From an uncultured Candidatus Saccharibacteria bacterium (GTDB lineage Bacteria > Patescibacteriota > Saccharimonadia > Saccharimonadales > CAZJQT01): a DNA stretch of 64,000 nucleotides. This document shows positions 21,311 to 61,066 of the stretch, piece by piece (within the stretch, counting starts at the first letter, position 1; the number at the start of each line of letters is the position of its first letter). Below the pieces are notes generated by a model, which made no database searches, had not been told where the DNA came from, and saw nothing but the letters and a program-made list of their open reading frames with translations. The position numbers and the translations under genes are program-made. The DNA lies in assembly GCA_964548655.1 (NCBI GenBank), contig CAZJQT010000001.1, positions 30,884 through 94,883 of the forward strand, written 5' to 3'.

Positions 21311-21337
21311 ACCCCGTATTGTACAATGGATACCACT

Positions 21338-22216
21338 ATGCCGGAGTTACCAGAAGTCGAAACCGTTAAACGCGGGCTAAGTCAGTTTTTGCCTGGCAAA
21401 AAGATTGTTGGCGTTACGCACGATTGGCCAAAGTCTTTTCCGAACGCCGAAGCCGACGTAAAAAAGTTTCTAATCGGCGCCAAGGTTAAGGAGGTAAAAC
21501 GCCGCGCCAAGGTGTTAATTATTGATCTTGATAACGCCTATAGTCTGGTAATCCACCTCAAAATGACCGGCCAACTAGTTTTCCGGAAGAACGATGACAG
21601 TCTTAGGTTTGGCGCCGGGCATCCAAATGATAGCCTGATAGGCAAACTACCTGACAAATCTACGCGCGTAACCTTTGGTTTGGGTGATAGCAAGCTTTTC
21701 TTTAACGACCAGCGTAAGTTTGGTTGGGTTAGGCTACTGCCAACCGTAGAAGTACCCAACATTGATTTTATGAAGCGGGTCGGGCCAGAACCTTTAGATG
21801 CTAAATTTACCGCCAAACAATTCCGGGAACGCATCAAAAAGCGAATGAACACTAGCATTAAAGCTGCGCTTTTAGACCAGTCAGTTATAGCTGGCGTGGG
21901 CAATATATATGCTGATGAATCACTTTGGGGAGCCAAAATTTATCCAGGAAAACAGGTTAAAAACTTAAACACAAGCAAATTGAACACATTATTTGAACAA
22001 CTTCAGTATGTGTTAAACCTAGCCATAGAAAAAGGCGGCAGCACTGACCGTAATTACGTTAATGCTGAAGGCAAACGCGGTAGCTACATGGACTTTGCCC
22101 GCGTGTTTAGACTGGATGGCCAACCATGCCCGCGTTGCGGCACGACTATCAAAAAAACTCGAGTGGTTGGCCGTGGCACGCACTTTTGCCCTAAGTGTCA
22201 GAAGGTGAGTTTATGA
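21338..22216 (+). CDS. mutM: Formamidopyrimidine-DNA glycosylase
   Basis: The start is set so the N-terminus is MPELPEVE (catalytic Pro2). A C-terminal zinc finger CPRCG...CPKCQ is present. Confidence 0.9.
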   Translation: MPELPEVETVKRGLSQFLPGKKIVGVTHDWPKSFPNAEADVKKFLIGAKVKEVKRRAKVLIIDLDNAYSLVIHLKMTGQLVFRKNDDSLRFGAGHPNDSLIGKLPDKSTRVTFGLGDSKLFFNDQRKFGWVRLLPTVEVPNIDFMKRVGPEPLDAKFTAKQFRERIKKRMNTSIKAALLDQSVIAGVGNIYADESLWGAKIYPGKQVKNLNTSKLNTLFEQLQYVLNLAIEKGGSTDRNYVNAEGKRGSYMDFARVFRLDGQPCPRCGTTIKKTRVVGRGTHFCPKCQKVSL

Positions 22217-23884: not shown

Positions 23885-23973
23885 CCCAGTAGTAGACTTT
23901 TGAGCAGTTTGCCTGTGGCAAACCTAGCATCCTGGCCTCTTGGCCAAGATGCTCTCAAAAGCTCACTGCTGGG
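23885..23973. repeat. ~89-nt imperfect palindrome between the divergent rpsT and DHH-like genes
   Basis: The arms are CCCAGTAGTAGACTTTTGAGCAG / TGCTCTCAAAAGCTCACTGCTGGG. Internal hairpins are TTTGCC-TGT-GGCAAA and GCATCCTGGCC-TCTT-GGCCAAGATGC. It shares CTGGC.CTCTTGGC with copies A and B. Confidence 0.55.
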
Positions 23974-24041
23974 TAAAGCAAAACCATGGACATTGCTTGT
24001 GCTTTATGGTACGATTCAATCAGTTAGGATCAAATACAAAA

Positions 24042-25634
24042 ATGGATACTCAAAAAGCTCAAGTTGTTGATTGGCTAAAGTCTGCCAACAACGTTTTGGT
24101 GACTGTTAGCGCCAACCCCTCAGTTGACCAATTATCAGCCGCCATTGGCTTGACGTTACTTCTAAACAAAATGGGCAAACATGCCACAGCCGTTTTCAGT
24201 GGTCAGACCCCGTCAACTATTGAGTTCCTGCAACCTGAGAAAACCCTAGAAAAAAACACCGACAGTCTGCGTGATTTTATAATTGCGCTCGATAAATCCA
24301 AGGCTGATAAGCTGCGTTATAAGGTTGAAGACCAAATGGTTAAAATCTTTATAACTCCTTACAGAACTTCGTTGAGTGATAAAGATTTGGAATTCAGCCA
24401 AGGTGATTTCAACGTTGATGTTGTGATGGCCTTGGGTGTCAAAGAACAAACTGATCTGGATAAAGCCATAATTGCGCATGGGCGCATACTGCACGATGCC
24501 AAAGTTGTTGGCGTCAGTAATGATCCGGCTCAACAACTCGGTAATGTTAATTTGATAGATACTAGAGCTAGCAGTTTATGCGAGATCTTGGCGGCACTAG
24601 GTGTCAGTCTACAGCCTGATATTTTGGATGCCCAGATTGCTACTGCGTTTTTGACGGGTATCGTGGCCGAAACCGACCGCTTCAGCAATCAAAAAACCAG
24701 TTCTGAAACCATGCAAATGAGCTCGAAGCTAATGACTGCTGGTGCCAACCAACAATTAGTGGCTAAACAATTAAAACCTACGGAAGAAAAAGTCGAGCTA
24801 TTAAAAGAAGTGCCAGACAAAAAGATTGATAGTAAAGACGATAAAGGCGCTCTAGAAATCGAGCACAATGAGCCGGCTCCTAAGGAAACCGTAACTGAGC
24901 TACCTGAGCCGCAACCTGAGCCACCAGAAATTGAACAGATTCATATTAGTGAGGATGGCCAAATTGAGCCACCAGCCCCAGAAGATAAAACTACCGAAAA
25001 ATCCAGGTTTATTTTAGAGCCACCAACGCTTGGCGGCCGGTTAACTGCCAATAGCGAGCCGGAAGCACTAGATCCAAGCACCGACCCGTTAGGTGCTAAA
25101 ACCAAAGAAACACCAATCCTAACTCACACTGAAAAAGGTGAGAACAAAACTAGTAACCTGCCAAAAACTGAGCCAGCTAAACCACAACAGAGCAAGACTT
25201 TAACCCAGCTAGAGAAGGAAACCGACAGTCCGCATCTTGATCAGCCTGCCACCAGTGACAATAAAGCCGAGCTTGACAGTGCTCGGCAAGCAGTTGAAGC
25301 AGCAGCACCGCCAACGATAAAACCACCAGAAGCTCTGGGTTCTCAATACATTGATATCGATCCTAAACTTACTCCGGCTAATCAGAGTCCGCCACCAACG
25401 CCAACCGAAAACGTTACGTCAGATCCTGGTCTGCCCCCAGGTTTGTCGCCGAACAGGCCTGATTTGCCCCCACCGAGTCCCTTTGGTACCAGCAGCCCAT
25501 CGGTAATACCCCCACCTCCGGTGCCCCCACCGATGATGCCTCCGCCAGTCAATCCTAGTATGAGTTCAGGCCAACAACCATTGCCAAACGCTGAAAACGA
25601 CAACGACGCCCAAGAACCACCCGTAGCACTCTAA
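24042..25634 (+). CDS. DHH-like (NrnA-type fold) protein with degenerate catalytic motifs and a ~300-aa Pro/Glu/Thr-rich C-terminus
   Basis: The sequence aligns by eye to NrnA motifs, but DxD becomes SVD, DHH becomes VSN and GDTGRF becomes AETDRF. I placed the start at the ATG at 24042, not the 23940 TTG. Confidence 0.5.
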   Translation: MDTQKAQVVDWLKSANNVLVTVSANPSVDQLSAAIGLTLLLNKMGKHATAVFSGQTPSTIEFLQPEKTLEKNTDSLRDFIIALDKSKADKLRYKVEDQMVKIFITPYRTSLSDKDLEFSQGDFNVDVVMALGVKEQTDLDKAIIAHGRILHDAKVVGVSNDPAQQLGNVNLIDTRASSLCEILAALGVSLQPDILDAQIATAFLTGIVAETDRFSNQKTSSETMQMSSKLMTAGANQQLVAKQLKPTEEKVELLKEVPDKKIDSKDDKGALEIEHNEPAPKETVTELPEPQPEPPEIEQIHISEDGQIEPPAPEDKTTEKSRFILEPPTLGGRLTANSEPEALDPSTDPLGAKTKETPILTHTEKGENKTSNLPKTEPAKPQQSKTLTQLEKETDSPHLDQPATSDNKAELDSARQAVEAAAPPTIKPPEALGSQYIDIDPKLTPANQSPPPTPTENVTSDPGLPPGLSPNRPDLPPPSPFGTSSPSVIPPPPVPPPMMPPPVNPSMSSGQQPLPNAENDNDAQEPPVAL

Positions 25635-25799
25635 AACTACATGCCGTGCCACCCGTTTCCGACCAAAGGTCGAAACTCTGCTGGCACTCTTGGCATCCTG
25701 CGTTGTTGCTGATTCTAGTGCTCCTTCGCCGTATTTCGATACGGCTCTGTCCGCGCTTCATCAGCGCCTAGCAGGGTGCTCAAGCATGTAGCTTTAGAG
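25629..25799 (+). repeat. Long rod-like imperfect palindrome, family copy A (171 nt)
   Basis: The terminal arms CTCTAAAACTACATGC / GCATGTAGCTTTAGAG pair at 15 of 16 positions. Internal helices are nested. The apical hairpin is CCGTAT-TTCG-ATACGG. Confidence 0.75.
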
Positions 25800-25822: not shown

Positions 25823-26521
25823 ATGGACGGCTTACTACTAGTTGACAAACCTTCTGGCTGGACTAGTTTTGATGTGGTAGCCAAGGTTCGTGGCATGCTA
25901 AAACAAACTGGCATCGCCAAACCAAAAGTGGGGCATACAGGTACATTGGATCCGTTGGCTACCGGTTTATTGGTTTTAGTAGTTGGCAAATACACCAAGC
26001 GCGCTCAGGAATTTTTCAAATTGGATAAAACCTACCAAGTAACTATGGAGCTTGGCCAAACCAGTACCACAGGCGACGAAGAAGGTGAGAAGACCAAAAT
26101 ATCCGACAACAGACCTACTCAAAAGGATCTAGAAGAAGTCATCAAACAGTTTACCGGCCAGATCGACCAAGTACCACCAGCCTTCTCGGCTATAAAAATT
26201 GGTGGCCAACGGGCCTATAAACTAGCGCGGGCAGGGCAGAAGGTGGAGCTTGAACCGCGTAAAGTAGAAATTTACGGTATAAATCTAGAAAAATATGACT
26301 ACCCAGCGATACAGTTCACAGCCAAAGTGTCATCAGGAACCTACATCCGTTCATTGGTGGCTGATATCGGTGAAAAACTTGGGACTGGCGCATATATGAC
26401 AGGGTTAAGCCGTACTCAGGTCGGACAATTTGAATTAGAAAAAGCAGTTGATTTAAGTAAAATTATGTGGGATAATATAACTCAGCAAATAATTGTAACA
26501 GATGACAAGTCTACCATTTAA
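25823..26521 (+). CDS. truB: tRNA pseudouridine(55) synthase
   Basis: Motifs GLLLVDKPSGWTSFDVV and GHTGTLDPLATGLLVL (catalytic Asp) are present. Confidence 0.9.
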   Translation: MDGLLLVDKPSGWTSFDVVAKVRGMLKQTGIAKPKVGHTGTLDPLATGLLVLVVGKYTKRAQEFFKLDKTYQVTMELGQTSTTGDEEGEKTKISDNRPTQKDLEEVIKQFTGQIDQVPPAFSAIKIGGQRAYKLARAGQKVELEPRKVEIYGINLEKYDYPAIQFTAKVSSGTYIRSLVADIGEKLGTGAYMTGLSRTQVGQFELEKAVDLSKIMWDNITQQIIVTDDKSTI

Positions 26522-29395: not shown

Positions 29396-29596
29396 ATGAA
29401 AACGCTAAAAGCCCCCGAACAATTTAAGTCACCAGTCGCCACTGCCGTCATGGCAGTTGTCGGGGTATTTTTGGCATATTTGTTAATCACTAGGGCGCTG
29501 GACACAGGCAGTTGGTGGCAATATTTGGGCGCGATACTGCTAATCGGACTCAGCATTCGCTTAAGTGCGCACACTGTTACACATAGATCAAAATAA
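29396..29596 (+). CDS. Small two-TM membrane protein
   Basis: 66 aa with two hydrophobic segments. It starts 1 nt after the pnp stop. Confidence 0.45.
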   Translation: MKTLKAPEQFKSPVATAVMAVVGVFLAYLLITRALDTGSWWQYLGAILLIGLSIRLSAHTVTHRSK

Positions 29597-29597
29597 A

Positions 29598-30158
29598 ATG
29601 ACTACTCAAAAACAACTAGATGACATCAAAGCCAAGATAATTGAGGACAAAGTTTGTCCAGACTTGGCCAAACAAGCAACTCAGCTAGTGTTTGGTGTTG
29701 GTAATCCAGACGCTGACATTGTTTTTATCGGTGAAGCACCGGGTAAAAACGAAGATATAAAAGGTGAGCCATTCGTGGGTGCGGCCGGCAAATTCCTAGA
29801 CAAGATGCTGGAAATGATCAAACTCAAACGCTCAGATATCTACATAACTAACATCGTTAAATACCGGCCACCCAATAACCGCGACCCATTACCAGATGAA
29901 AAAGCCGCTTTTTTGCCATATTTAGAGACTCAGCTAGAAGTAATCAAACCTAAACTGACCATAACACTTGGTCGTCACAGTCTTAATTGCTTCTTGCCGG
30001 ATCTTTCAATCAGCCAAGTCCATGGCCAACCGAAACGCTATAAAGGCAGAGTTTTTCTGCCACTGTTTCATCCGGCGGCGGCATTGTATAACGGTGCTAT
30101 GAAGCAAACTCTCATAGACGACTTTGCTCGCATCCCATTAATTTTAGAAAAAATTTAA
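29598..30158 (+). CDS. Uracil-DNA glycosylase, family 4
   Basis: [24 protein letters not shown] and a C-terminal HPAA motif are present. I chose the ATG at 29598. Confidence 0.85.
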
Positions 30159-38836: not shown

Positions 38837-39379
38837 ATGATCCATGAACGTGTGGTCAAGGAGCAGCTAAAACGTATTGGCTCCGACTTTAAATTCTGGG
38901 GGGTCAGCGAGCTACGTGAACTTCCCAAAGTCCTGTTTGAAGGCGAACAATTAAACCATGTTATAAACGGCCGCTACACCGGTGGTTTTGCCACGCTATG
39001 CGCAACCGACCAGCGCGTCTTATTAATAGACAAAAAACCTTTTTACCTAACGCTCGAGGACATTCGCTACGATATGATATCTGACGTTATGTACAATCAC
39101 CGTTTGCTAAACGCCACAGTGCTGTTGGGCACGGTTCACAAATCAATAGCCTTTATTGGCTATAATCACGGTAAGCTCAGGAACATGACTAACTTTATTC
39201 AACAAAAGGTTCTTGAGTTTCGCCAACAGCAAAATCAGCAGCAATTGCAACCTCTTGTAGCTTCCAACAACTTAGCTATGCCTGTCCAAAATCTGGTTAA
39301 TTTGCCAGAGCATAACTATCCGATCAATCCCTACAAGATGCCGGTTATGATCCGACGCCGCGTCTCCCGCTTCAACTAA
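38837..39379 (+). CDS. Bacterial PH-domain (YokE-like) protein with a Gln-rich C-terminus
   Basis: The pattern LFEGEQLNHVINGRY.GGFATLCATDQRVLLID...LEDIRYDMISDV is typical of bacterial PH/GRAM-like domains. There is an AAGGGAGG SD. Confidence 0.5.
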   Translation: MIHERVVKEQLKRIGSDFKFWGVSELRELPKVLFEGEQLNHVINGRYTGGFATLCATDQRVLLIDKKPFYLTLEDIRYDMISDVMYNHRLLNATVLLGTVHKSIAFIGYNHGKLRNMTNFIQQKVLEFRQQQNQQQLQPLVASNNLAMPVQNLVNLPEHNYPINPYKMPVMIRRRVSRFN

Positions 39380-39549
39380 TCACACTCCGCACCAGCCAGC
39401 CTGTCTTCTGGCGGAGCCATAAGCACCGCTGGCCTCTTTGGCTCAATCACGATTTTCTTCTGCGATGCTCCTTCACTGTATTTAGAAATACAGTTCAGTC
39501 CGCTTCTCAAAGAGAAATCGCACCTGAGCCTAAAGTGCGGAGCGTGATT
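39378..39549 (+). repeat. Long rod-like imperfect palindrome, family copy B (172 nt)
   Basis: The arms AATCACACTCCGCAC / GTGCGGAGCGTGATT pair at 14 of 15 positions. The core TGCTCCTTCACTGTATTTAGAAATACAGTTCAGTCCGCTTC is homologous to copy A. Confidence 0.75.
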
Positions 39550-39580: not shown

Positions 39581-40234
39581 ATGTACTTCAGTAGTAGGGC
39601 AGAAGCTGGGCGCTTGTTAGCCGATAAGCTTAAAAAATACGCCAATCAACCAACGGTTGTCATTGCGCTAAATCAGGGCTCAGTGCTGATCGGTGCCCAA
39701 ATAGCCATGTCTTTGCACGCCAATCTGCTAGTGCTTTTAAGCGACAATATAATGCTGCCCGGCGAGCCCAAACCGTTCGCAACCATGACTGAAAACACCT
39801 ACACTTACAATAACTTTTATAATGAGAGTGAACGTGAAGAGATCGAATCTGAATACCACGGTGTAATTGAGGACGAAAAGCGCAAAAAACTGTACTCTTT
39901 GCACCGCCTAACCGACAAAGGGGGTGAGATTGACCGTAAATATTTGCGTCAGCACGTGATCATACTGGTTTCGGACGGTCTGCAGGACGGCCAATCACTT
40001 GAAGTCGCGGCCGATTTTCTAAAACCAATTAAGGTCAAGCGATTGGTAATAGCTACGCCGCTGGCTACTGTAAACGCAGTCGATAAAATGCACCTAATTG
40101 GCGATGAGATACATTGCCTCGGCGTGGTAGAAAACATGATGGAAACCGACCATTATTACGATGACAATAATTTGCCCAAAAATGCGGATATTCAGAAGAT
40201 TATTAAAAATATATCGCTGAACTGGACGCTATAG
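39581..40234 (+). CDS. Phosphoribosyltransferase-family protein
   Basis: The PRPP-binding-type acidic loop is HVIILVSDGLQDGQS. The N-terminal FSSRAEAGRLLA resembles the family of predicted PRTases. Confidence 0.65.
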   Translation: MYFSSRAEAGRLLADKLKKYANQPTVVIALNQGSVLIGAQIAMSLHANLLVLLSDNIMLPGEPKPFATMTENTYTYNNFYNESEREEIESEYHGVIEDEKRKKLYSLHRLTDKGGEIDRKYLRQHVIILVSDGLQDGQSLEVAADFLKPIKVKRLVIATPLATVNAVDKMHLIGDEIHCLGVVENMMETDHYYDDNNLPKNADIQKIIKNISLNWTL

Positions 40235-40297
40235 AACTATTTCGACGCGGCTTTTCAAGCCGCTTACCGAGTTCTTTTGTGACCAAAAGAACCAAAA

Positions 40298-40466
40298 GTC
40301 CCGGGGCTGACGTTCCTGAACAGACCTATCTGTAGTAATTAAGGTCTTTGCGTTCAGAACTCCTCGTAAACTTGCCAACGGCAACTTTACTCATCAAACA
40401 GCTGAACGAACTCAAAGCCAGACCTAATTACTACATCTAGTCTGTCAGTCACTTAATGCCCCGGAC
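40298..40466 (+). repeat. Long rod-like imperfect palindrome, family copy C (169 nt, diverged)
   Basis: The outer pair is GTCCCGGGGCTGAC / GTCAG..GCCCCGGAC. The ~25-nt arms CAGACCTATCTGTAGTAATTAAGGTCT / AGACCTAATTACTACATCTAGTCTG pair. The inner pair is CGTTCAG/CTGAACG. The apical region is CTCCTCG...TCATCA. Confidence 0.65.
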
Positions 40467-40685
40467 CCCAAAAAATACAAGTCAGATGCCCAGATCTATT
40501 TAGTTGCGATTCATGATCTTATCCCCCATCTGTAAGTTCCTGATGAGTAAATGTCAAAAGCACAATTTGAAGCGAGGAGTTGTTTGAGGTTTGCCATCCC
40601 AAATAATAAGGCAAGCCGAGTTCTCCGAGCATTGTGTCTTTTGACAATGAAGTCATAAAGAGCTGGAAGCGGGGTCGCTTCTTTG

Positions 40686-40715
40686 CATACTTTCTGGTCG
40701 ACACCAGAAAGTATG
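40686..40715 (-). terminator. 13-bp perfect hairpin downstream of ychF (no U-tract)
   Basis: The hairpin is CATACTTTCTGGT-CGAC-ACCAGAAAGTATG, starting 38 nt past the ychF stop. Confidence 0.4.
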
Positions 40716-40752
40716 TCGAACAGGCGAGCGAAGCGCGCCGTCGGAATTAGTT

Positions 40753-58052: not shown

Positions 58053-58985
58053 CTACTCAGTTTTGTGATGGAATTTCTGATGTACGGCTTTGAGGTGGGG
58101 GTCGGTAACATGAGTGTAGATCTGGGTGGTGGCTATATTGCTGTGACCTAGCAGGGCTTGGACTGACCTTAAATCAGCCCCATTCATAAGCAAGTCAGTA
58201 GCAAAACTGTGCCTCAAGGTATGTGGGCTAACATGTTTAGTAATGCCAGCTAACTTAGCGTATTGGCTAACCATACGTTGCACACTACGGGCAGTCAAAC
58301 GGTGAAAATTGCCGGATAAATCAACCGCCTTACTGCCCGAATAACGAATAAAAAGTGGTTTGGTGTTGTCGGTGCGCTTTTCCAGATAACGTTCAAGCCA
58401 GTCGGCCGCCTCTTGACTAACAAAAATTGGCCGGTCTTTCTGGCCCTTACCGCGCACCATAAACTCACGGCGTTTTAAGTTTATTTGTTCACGGTCCAAG
58501 CCAACTAGCTCAGAAACACGTAATCCTGAAGAGAACAACAGTTCCAAAATCGCTCTATCTCTAAGTCCCGATTGTTTTTCCAGTTTGGGTTGTTCAAAAA
58601 TCCGGGCTAATTCTTCTGGGTTTAGGAAGGTAACTTGTTTTCTAACCGTGTGGGCCAGCTCTATTTTGTCAGCCGACAAGCAATTAATATCACGTTTGGC
58701 ACAATATTTTAGGAAACTTCTAAGCGCGATTAAATGATAATTTTGAGTCGTTTTCTGCAGTTCATCAGAGGTGTTTGTGCCCAGACGGTTTAGCCACAGA
58801 CGCCATTTGCGCACCAACTCTTGGTCGATATCACTGACTTTTATATCGCCAGCAAAATCAATCAGACGGGTGAGGTAGTGATCGTAGTTAGCTATAGTTT
58901 TTTGCGAGCGGTTTTGTTCAATCTCCAAATATTCCAGGAAATCAGTTTTGGTTTTGCTAACTAGCATAACCATATTGTACGACAC
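58053..58985 (-). CDS. Tyrosine recombinase, XerC/XerD family
   Basis: HTLRHSFATDLLMNGADLRSVQALLGHSNIATTQIYTHV carries the R..H-R-[HW]..Y catalytic pattern. An N-terminal SAM-like core-binding domain is present. Confidence 0.85.
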   Translation of the reverse strand: MSYNMVMLVSKTKTDFLEYLEIEQNRSQKTIANYDHYLTRLIDFAGDIKVSDIDQELVRKWRLWLNRLGTNTSDELQKTTQNYHLIALRSFLKYCAKRDINCLSADKIELAHTVRKQVTFLNPEELARIFEQPKLEKQSGLRDRAILELLFSSGLRVSELVGLDREQINLKRREFMVRGKGQKDRPIFVSQEAADWLERYLEKRTDNTKPLFIRYSGSKAVDLSGNFHRLTARSVQRMVSQYAKLAGITKHVSPHTLRHSFATDLLMNGADLRSVQALLGHSNIATTQIYTHVTDPHLKAVHQKFHHKTE

Positions 58986-58988
58986 AGA

Positions 58989-59183
58989 TCTAGCAAACTG
59001 GCTTTAAAAGGCCAGCTCAATCTGTTAGAATAGTCATTAAGAATACGGCCTTCGCACTTGGTTGCTGGACAAGGCGCCAGCGAAGCGCGGAATGAGGCGT
59101 ATTTAATATACGGTAAATGAGCACTGCAGCTGGTAACGCCGTCCAGCGCCAAGAGCATCAGCAGAGTGGATAGCTTTGCTAGA
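58989..59183 (-). repeat. Family copy D (195 nt), inverted orientation
   Basis: Nt 59073-59168 align with the reverse complement of copy A. Shared blocks are AGGCGC..GAAGCGCGGA..GAG.CGTAT..ATACGG..GAGCACT..CAGC..AACGC..GCCAAGAG...CAGCAGAG. The outer arms TCTAGCAAA/TTTGCTAGA pair. Confidence 0.7.
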
Positions 59184-59212
59184 CAGCAGGATGATGCGGT
59201 GCGGAGGACGTA

Positions 59213-59794
59213 ATGGAACAAACATTGATTATATTAAAGCCTGACGTCGTTCAGCGCGGCATAGTAGGTGACATATTAAGCCGATTCGAAAAAGTCGGAC
59301 TCAAAATTGTTGGCATGAAAATGTTAGTTCCAGAGGACACGCGTCTAGCCAAACACTACCCCAACAGCCGCCGTGAATTTATAGAAGGTATGGGCAACAA
59401 AACCTTAAATAACTACAAAGAACTTGGGCTTGATGTAAAAGCCGAGTTTGGTCATACTGACCCCTATAAAATTGGTTTACAGATCAATAAATGGTTGATT
59501 GATTTTATGAAATCGGGTCCAGTTATCGCCACCGTCTTGGAAGGACCACATGCCATAGAAGTAGTTAGAAAAATAGTCGGCTTTACGCTGCCATCGGCTG
59601 CTGATCCGGGAACTATTAGAGGTGACTATTCGTTTGACTCATCAGCACTAGCCAACGCCGCCAAGCGTCCACTTAGAAATCTCATCCATGCGTCTGGCAA
59701 CAAAGAAGAAGCCGAACATGAAATTCCTATCTGGTTTGATAGCAGCGAACTCCACGACTACGAAACTATCCACCAAAAACACATGACCAGCTAG
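59213..59794 (+). CDS. ndk: Nucleoside diphosphate kinase (long form, ~35-aa insertion)
   Basis: Motifs TLIILKPDVVQRGIVGDILSRFEKVGLKIVGMKM, GTIRGDY and NLIHASG (catalytic His) are present. An insertion lies between HY and FMKSGPV. Confidence 0.8.
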   Translation: MEQTLIILKPDVVQRGIVGDILSRFEKVGLKIVGMKMLVPEDTRLAKHYPNSRREFIEGMGNKTLNNYKELGLDVKAEFGHTDPYKIGLQINKWLIDFMKSGPVIATVLEGPHAIEVVRKIVGFTLPSAADPGTIRGDYSFDSSALANAAKRPLRNLIHASGNKEEAEHEIPIWFDSSELHDYETIHQKHMTS

Positions 59795-60991: not shown

Positions 60992-61066
60992 TGGTACCCC
61001 CGAGAGGAATCGAACCTCTATCTTTTCCTTAGGACGGAACTACTCTATCCGTTGAGCCACGGGGGC
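60992..61066 (-). tRNA. tRNA-Arg (anticodon CCU), CCA encoded
   Basis: The reverse complement folds by hand as a cloverleaf. Acceptor is GCCCCCG/CGGGGGU. D arm is GCUC-AACGGAUA-GAGU. Anticodon arm has loop GU-CCU-AA. Variable loop is 4 nt. T arm is AGAGG-UUCGAUU-CCUCU. Discriminator A is followed by CCA. Total 75 nt. Confidence 0.85.

Follow-up and report, generated by a model that had tools for sequence, protein, structure and literature searches.

A 64-kb stretch of DNA from an uncultured Candidatus Saccharibacteria bacterium (called the window here, meaning the whole 64 kb) contains three copies of a long palindromic element, named A, B, and D as in the initial annotation of this DNA, which had also listed a copy C. 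We consider A, B, and D to be probable members of a Saccharibacteria-specific family of nonautonomous palindromic repeats, a functional analogue of the Rickettsia palindromic elements (RPEs). The family is unusual in that it has a conserved apical core and variable arms, with pairing that is kept by compensatory changes even in genes. Copies are gained and lost, as shown by empty and filled orthologous sites and by near-identical copies in one genome, and they insert in either orientation and persist both in short intergenic spacers and in-frame within housekeeping genes.

Architecture of the window copies

Copy A, initially described as one long hairpin, folds instead as a three-way junction, with P1 as its outer stem, P2 as a side hairpin on the 5' side, and P3 as a long rod. 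The three copies and the parts of copy A are as follows (bit scores are from R1, a covariance model built from an alignment of the rod):

25629..25799, + strand: copy A, a full type I element of 171 nucleotides (nt); fold of -78.8 kcal/mol, z = -8.7 versus shuffles; R1 score of 104.7 bits over 25677-25798
25629..25644, + strand: 5' arm of P1 in copy A, CTCTAAAACTACATGC; partner GCATGTAGCTTTAGAG at 25784-25799, with 15 of 16 positions paired
25646..25687, + strand: P2 side hairpin of copy A, GTGCCA...TGGCAC around GTTTC-GACC-AAA-GGTC-GAAAC
25690..25783, + strand: P3 of copy A, a long rod with several conserved internal loops and an apical hairpin, as seen in the fold
25719..25754, + strand: conserved core of copy A, TGCTCCTTCGCCGTATTTCGATACGGCTCTGTCCGC, located by pattern match, with the apical hairpin at 25728-25745; the core is kept in 83 copies
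39378..39549, + strand: copy B, 172 nt; core at 39466-39503; fold z = -6.9; R1 score of 69.8 bits
59049..59207, - strand: copy D, 159 nt; core at 59123-59087; fold z = -3.8; R1 score of 109.4 bits

Folding bore out the pairing of the 16-nt terminal arms of copy A at 15 of 16 positions, which had been noted at the outset (the P1 helices are 25629-25635/25793-25799 and 25637-25644/25784-25791), and both the helix GCTGAT/ATCAGC and the apical hairpin CCGTAT-TTCG-ATACGG are present. In contrast, GTTTCCGACC/GGTCGAAAC, which had been taken for a nested helix of a single hairpin, is the local side hairpin P2; its homologues in relatives carry the compensatory pairs ACGGC/GCCGT, ACGAC/GTCGT, and ACAAC/GTTGT. 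Copy B belongs to a sub-variant that has the continuous pairing CGATTTTCTTC/GAGAAATCG in place of the UGCGUU/GCCUU internal loop, and the P1 helix of copy D is CCTCCGCAC/GTGCGAAGG. Copy D had been recognized as inverted and placed at 58989-59183; it is indeed a minus-strand copy, but those coordinates cut off its 5' arm and added an unrelated downstream hairpin, the true extent being 59049-59207. The terminal arms of A, B, and D are unrelated between copies yet complementary within each, and the compensatory change from C-G to T-A in the apical stem is real between A and B, both as had been proposed. Delimiting elements by minimum free energy folding of extended flanks gave spurious outer pairings and no usable ends.

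The core pattern TGCTCMTTY..GTAT..ATAC...TC..TCCGC has three exact matches in the window, in A, B, and D, versus zero expected, and R1 likewise found A, B, and D only. Copy C (40298-40466) folds into a rod-like hairpin of high stability (-62 kcal/mol, z = -8.6), and the spacer around it, at 518 nt (40235-40752), is unusually long. The core is absent from it, it was not matched by R1 at an E value of ≤10 with filters off, and it had no relative among the fetched loci; copy C is thus not a member of the family, and the window holds three copies and not the four initially counted. No Rfam model matched copy C even with permissive filters, and stop codons occur in all six of its frames. A small RNA that has escaped detection (for example, a 6S-like RNA) or another palindromic element could lie here.

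Size of the family and covariation

A scan with a degenerate core pattern, covering one genome per bacterial and archaeal species, yielded 79 loci, nearly all labeled Saccharibacteria, Saccharimonadales, or Patescibacteria and often several per metagenome-assembled genome (MAG). Searched against the window and these collected loci (mostly MAG contigs, designated L001 and so forth), R1 recovered all seeds together with 15 further copies without a match to the search pattern, for a total of 97 copies. The elements come as type I (P1, P2, and P3; ∼160 to 179 nt) or type II (the rod alone; ∼117 to 129 nt). Two loci, L065 and L076, are labeled as belonging to Acidobacteriota and Gammaproteobacteria MAGs. 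Because L076 is nearly identical to the Patescibacteria loci L027 and L078, both are probably misbinned Saccharibacteria contigs.

For some lineages, the initial expectation of dozens of copies per ∼1-Mb genome comes close: the Saccharibacteria loci (558 kb) contain 15 unseeded copies, the 64-kb window has 3, and several MAGs have 3 to 5 seeded copies. The density is uneven, and metagenomic loci around truB gave a single weak match in 116 kb.

Covariation was assessed in an alignment of 82 copies against 500 shuffles and against a control in which pairing partners were slid by 1 to 3 columns. In the consensus rod, 21 of 27 pairs showed double changes. Paired cells made up 90.9% of the observed alignment, compared to 67.7% after shuffling and 31 to 43% after sliding, and 541 cells were changed on both sides (162 shuffled and 79 to 138 slid). 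The covariation score was 0.599, versus 0.175 for the shuffles, none of which scored as high, and 0.08 to 0.14 with slid partners. The initial view that this is not random intergenic DNA and that pairing is maintained was therefore well founded. The unseeded copies covary even inside the supposedly invariant core, where TGCTC/TCCGC becomes TACTC/TCCGT or TCC../..GG, a loop pair is C-G, G-C, or A-T, and a U-A pair is replaced by C-G.

As had been noted, the element is not recognizable as any named RNA family: Rfam 15 gave no match at gathering thresholds, at an E value of ≤5 for the whole window, or at an E value of ≤10 for the element alone. Two resemblances, of CCGUAU/AUACGG to domain V of group II introns and of GGAGCAGC to the signal recognition particle RNA, were rejected since the remainder of each motif is absent and the respective Rfam models were silent. 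Searches of phages, plasmids, and viral contigs returned no family match, and a literature search that was not exhaustive gave no earlier description of the family for Saccharibacteria or Patescibacteria.

Copies inside genes

Nineteen of the 97 copies lie in-frame within genes (a coding copy is defined here as one with an open frame through the element and ≥60 amino acids [aa] on both sides); none of the three window copies is among them. In the hosts recognized with Pfam, the domain is either split in two or stretched over the insert. These hosts were as follows:

NAD-dependent DNA ligase LigA: L030 and L031, at the same site
UvrD/PcrA helicase: L053 and L014, at different sites
Isoleucyl-tRNA synthetase (IleRS): two copies in one gene
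Cysteinyl-tRNA synthetase (CysRS), TsaD, Fpg, pseudouridine synthase, and FemAB
Family 4 uracil-DNA glycosylase (UDG): six MAGs

Further hosts, namely ParB, RecJ, a Mur ligase, TsaB, and others, were identified by eye. Copies can be clustered: at L044 (6682-7998), the IleRS gene with its two in-frame copies has a third copy nearby in parB, and at L030 (4000-5863), three copies occur in 2 kb: one is within ligA, another stops at what is probably the ligA start codon, and the third lies farther upstream.

The clearest insertion is that in UDG. The window UDG (29565-30158) is free of it and aligns on either side of a clean insertion of 57 to 66 residues in relatives, which was found by protein alignment in L062, L067, L009, and L013 and by tblastn in L074 and L046; a solved UDG structure (4zbx) has ∼55 residues fewer at the insert position. 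Likewise, the window Fpg (21326-22216) is without the insert of L019, whose peptide matches the translated copy D. Insert-free orthologues were also found in L077, L022, and L012.

The coding copies are read in both orientations. In 13 of them, the sense strand is opposite to the one initially annotated and encodes the peptide ...QGAGEQRTEPYxxYGEGAA..ATQQ..., and in the other 6, the sense strand is the annotated one and the peptide, ...SASSEDALLxRRMSNTAxSAxPSSS..., is unrelated. Intergenic copies often have stop codons in the frames that the coding copies use. The frame of the element is kept open only where it sits in a gene, which argues for translation through the insert, as far as can be judged from the reading frames, and against an intron-like or bypassed element. 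The latter was rejected as a candidate because every coding copy keeps the correct open frame across the insert. The frame is also open at one and the same site in several independent MAGs, six for UDG and two for LigA.

A search of the insert peptide against 5.8 billion proteins gave no match. An insert-peptide profile in the same protein search matched only P0001 to P0004, short open reading frames of 50 to 91 aa without Pfam domains, which suggests that some intergenic copies end up being annotated by gene callers as small hypothetical proteins.

Gain, loss, and persistence of copies

In L080, a close relative with a TruB of 77% identity, the site of copy A is empty. The upstream gene of L080 has the same Ala-Leu-stop end: it ends in ...GCT CTG TAG and truB starts 17 nt further on, and in the window, ...GCA CTC TAA is followed by the element. 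No copy was found upstream of truB in any of 28 metagenomic truB loci. In a more distant relative, L062, the site orthologous to A (590-640) holds only a perfect 35-nt palindrome, CCGTATTTACAAGGAGGCTCCTTGTAAATACGG, which contains the family core words CCGTAT/ATACGG and AAGGAG/CTCCTT; it may represent a remnant or a relative or have arisen by coincidence.

Two loci of one MAG on different contigs, L002 and L029, share a unit of ∼127 nt that is ∼98% identical, with sharp edges and unrelated flanks, showing that the arms travel with the unit. Other copies are old. The UDG insertion is common to six MAGs whose UDG proteins are only 53 to 60% identical, and of 56 pairs in these embedded copies, 18 are invariant and 18, paired in every sequence, take two or more Watson-Crick forms.

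Intergenic copies are found between genes of every relative orientation (relative to the flanking genes, 25 are ++, 16 are --, 8 are +- [convergent], and 4 are -+ [divergent]), and the flanking genes share no function. At L079 (6821-7123), two adjacent copies lie in opposite orientations.

Genomic context of the window copies

Copy A lies between the gene for a 564-aa protein with a proline-rich tail and truB (ATG at 25823), and the stop codon of the upstream gene, on which the element had been said to begin, was found inside its 5' arm (TAA, 25632-25634). Copy B lies between genes for proteins of 180 aa (stop at 39377-39379) and 217 aa (ATG at 39581). Filling spacers between codirectional genes, A and B are probably cotranscribed with their neighbors. 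Copy D is flanked by the gene for a Xer-like tyrosine recombinase (58053-58985, - strand) and by ndk (ATG at 59213, + strand). The GGAGG Shine-Dalgarno sequence of ndk is complementary to CCTCC in the 5' arm of the D P1 stem and is paired in the outer stem, and copy D could, as predicted from this pairing, damp ndk translation by sequestering its Shine-Dalgarno sequence. Overall, the three window copies are taken to be intergenic passengers, probably cotranscribed with adjacent genes, which, as very stable stem-loops, may incidentally affect mRNA stability or translation.

Several further features were seen around these copies. A short hairpin, CTGGC-tttaaaag-GCCAG, lies between D and the start of the recombinase gene (58989-59040), and a promoter-like sequence, TTTAAA-17-TGnTAGAAT (59003-59031, + strand), precedes D on the ndk strand and would drive transcription through D into ndk. 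The recombinase is a 310-aa protein of the Xer/phage integrase type with the C-terminal motif ...HSNIATTQIYTHV; its position beside D is a single case and does not count as evidence of a tie to the repeat. The 564-aa protein gene before copy A (23940-25634) encodes a long, proline-rich, low-complexity tail; the relatives L080, L062, L083, and L084 share both this tail and the gene order with truB. The sole RNA gene recognized in the window by Rfam and ARAGORN is a tRNA-Arg (CCT) at 60992-61066 (- strand).

Repeat element or functional nucleic acid

The initial annotation had left the choice between a structured RNA and a palindromic repeat. To separate them, G·U and A·C mismatches in the helices were counted by orientation class and, separately, in the UDG-embedded copies, for which the sense strand is known. 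The counts were 60 versus 68 in all copies, 22 versus 22 in copies flanked by genes of the same orientation, 15 versus 21 in copies flanked by genes of opposite orientation, and 12 versus 12 in the UDG-embedded copies. The repeat element is favored over a strand-specific RNA by this equality of G·U and A·C, by the mixed orientation, and by the location of about one-fifth of the copies in-frame within housekeeping genes. Among the marks of a strand-specific RNA, covariation was observed, but there was no Rfam match, no wobble asymmetry, no fixed orientation, and no consistent promoter or terminator signal. A 5' leader or riboswitch was rejected on the grounds of the mixed orientation and the unrelated neighbor genes.

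The repeat family that we prefer would work as follows. The unit would spread as DNA by way of a hairpin or cruciform intermediate, and its conserved core would be recognized by a trans-acting enzyme, encoded either by the host or by an element. The complementarity of the arms may be kept because the hairpin is required for spreading, or intrastrand template switching may copy changes from arm to arm. Copies in genes would be translated as hydrophilic extra loops, as the preserved frames suggest.

Several observations weigh against a selfish repeat of this kind. The compensatory pairing that the UDG-embedded copies have undergone in situ, over deep divergence, looks more like continuing constraint than like the decay of selfish DNA. 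The terminal repeats are complementary within a copy and unrelated between copies, with only recent duplicates sharing their arms, and the apex and not the ends is most conserved, the reverse of what is seen in a transposon. There is no general target site duplication: a terminal repeat was detectable in 66 copies, and these have no flanking or terminal dinucleotide in common. A TA flank can be read for A and for D, and L080, at its empty site, has TAG where the TA of A would be. No transposase was found beside the copies examined, and no autonomous parent was identified. Finally, the conserved loops are strand asymmetric, as is typically the case in single-stranded functional nucleic acids. 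Read on the strand opposite to that of the initial annotation, the core is 5'-GC G GA NU GAG [CCGUAU..AUACGG] UGA AN GA GC-3', and its loops amount to two tandem G·A/A·G motifs plus a G·U, whereas the annotated strand offers only pyrimidine-pyrimidine mismatches; this opposite strand also folds better in 88 of the 97 copies (mean difference, 7.3 kcal/mol). The asymmetry is compatible with recognition of a single-stranded form of either DNA or RNA.

These points give some room to a reading in which the element is a single-stranded functional nucleic acid, RNA or single-stranded DNA, with a purine-rich core bound by a Saccharibacteria-specific protein and a rod that is selected at each site, even in essential genes. 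We regard it as possible, if on the unlikely side, on account of the compensatory evolution in situ, the strand-asymmetric loops, and the constant length combined with variable arms; if true, the element would combine the roles of mobile structured module and protein-coding sequence. Another proposal, a cis-acting structured RNA in mRNAs that serves as a processing, stability, or translation control module, is bound by a Saccharibacteria-specific protein, and is kept at each site, appears unlikely. It would explain the strong covariation, the maintenance of structure at orthologous sites (coding sequence included), the tandem sheared G·A pairs and G·U found on the better-folding strand only, and the position of copy D in the probable 5' untranslated region of ndk, where it pairs with the Shine-Dalgarno sequence. 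However, G·U shows no excess over A·C, not even in copies for which it is known which strand is transcribed, and either strand can be sense, with 25 versus 16 copies between codirectional genes and 6 versus 13 coding copies. Nor do the flanking genes have a function in common, no consistent promoter or terminator signals were found flanking the window copies, the element is dispensable at its site in close relatives, and Rfam has no match.

The independence from orientation and the symmetric mismatches point to constraint at the DNA level, and the core sequence is strictly conserved, as would be expected if the element were a functional site for a host protein (in nucleoid organization, in replication, or for a Xer-like or other recombinase) that acts as a duplex or extruded hairpin in either orientation. 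The adjacency of D to a tyrosine recombinase gene fits such a site; it is a single case, though, and no associated gene was found. The density of copies also varies by lineage (1 weak match in the 116 kb of truB loci versus 3 copies in the window), presence and absence differ between close relatives, and a position in the catalytic domains of enzymes is hard to square with a benefit to the host, all of which makes a host DNA site distinctly improbable. It is more improbable still, to the point of being almost certainly wrong, that a peptide module is the selected unit, with intergenic copies as decayed remnants and the palindromy incidental. The conserved, hydrophilic peptide of the reverse-strand frame (QGAGEQRTEPYxxYGEGAA..ATQQ) does have 9 invariant positions in 15 inserts, but the other orientation encodes the wholly different SASSEDALLxRRMSNTAxSAxPSSS, and this two-orientation result largely refutes the idea. 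In addition, ∼80% of the copies are intergenic, many with stops in those frames, and a peptide module cannot account for compensatory base pair changes.

Implications

Protein-coding palindromic repeats have hitherto been treated as peculiar to Rickettsia and Wolbachia. Saccharibacteria are epibionts with reduced genomes, and an independent and widespread family in them suggests that such selfish DNA recurs in small, host-dependent genomes. The repeat family would also account for unexpected insertions of ∼55 to 65 residues in core enzymes of Saccharibacteria, including LigA, UvrD, UDG, TsaD, and aminoacyl-tRNA synthetases, and such segments call for caution on the part of annotators and structure predictors. 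The covariance model can be used for masking or tracking the repeat. Since the arms covary without a G·U bias, the family is well suited to asking whether hairpin selection or a mutational mechanism (template switching) lies behind the compensation in palindromes.

Comparison with known repeat elements

Among known repeats, the transposable elements of the miniature inverted-repeat type (MITEs) Correia/NEMIS of Neisseria, ERIC of enterobacteria, and RUP of pneumococcus have conserved terminal inverted repeats and a TA target duplication, and some ERIC and Correia variants provide open frames that are fused to genes. Like these, the Saccharibacteria elements are small, palindromic, and mostly intergenic, form cotranscribed stable stem-loops, and are polymorphic for presence and absence. 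Unlike them, they have arms that are unrelated from one copy to the next, and they show no general TA flank; of the classical features of a MITE, presence/absence differences and near-identical copies were thus found, and conserved terminal repeats and a target site duplication were not. Neither an IHF-type motif nor a related insertion sequence was identified for the family. Repetitive extragenic palindromic sequences (REPs) are 20 to 40 nt long with a conserved terminal tetranucleotide, REPINs are end-conserved doublets of them, and both are mobilized by RAYTs, which are Y1 transposases of the IS200/IS605 type. The likeness to REPs and REPINs consists in hairpin-forming intergenic repeats whose copies diverge within a genome while pairing is kept, with a single-stranded hairpin as the presumed substrate; in-frame coding insertions, which the Saccharibacteria family has, are not a REPIN feature, and no RAYT gene was encountered with the family, although no search was aimed at one.

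The closest analogue, going by described properties, is the RPE and not ERIC or Correia, to which the initial annotation had likened the element, because copies of the family lie in-frame within housekeeping genes. RPEs (RPE-1 to RPE-10; Ogata et al. 2000, 2002; PMC2229807, PMC10969869, PMC1779305) are ∼100 to 170 bp long, do not encode their own mobility, and form a long stem-loop by pairing of their 5' and 3' ends. They occur in dozens of copies in the small, reduced genome of a host-dependent bacterium, both between genes and in-frame in conserved housekeeping genes, with some ancient insertions shared by related species and no clear target site duplication (PMC2229807, PMC10969869, PMC1779305). 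The Saccharibacteria family resembles them as a short palindromic repeat present in many copies in a reduced genome, with intergenic and in-frame coding copies in either orientation, presence/absence polymorphism, and no self-encoded mobility function. Further points in common are a predicted long stem-loop closed by its two ends, some old insertions that related genomes share, and the lack of a clear target site duplication. It differs from RPEs in that no insertion into an RNA gene was seen in the Saccharibacteria DNA examined, in its conserved apex and the terminal arms that differ between copies, in the three-way junction with a side hairpin that many copies form, and in pairing that is kept by compensatory changes even in genes. 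Its hosts are Saccharibacteria/Patescibacteria and not Rickettsiales, and the sequences are presumably unrelated, the two being likened by properties alone. Given the other host phylum and an assignment made by described properties and not by sequence, we provisionally file the family as an independent member of the RPE kind and not as an RPE proper.

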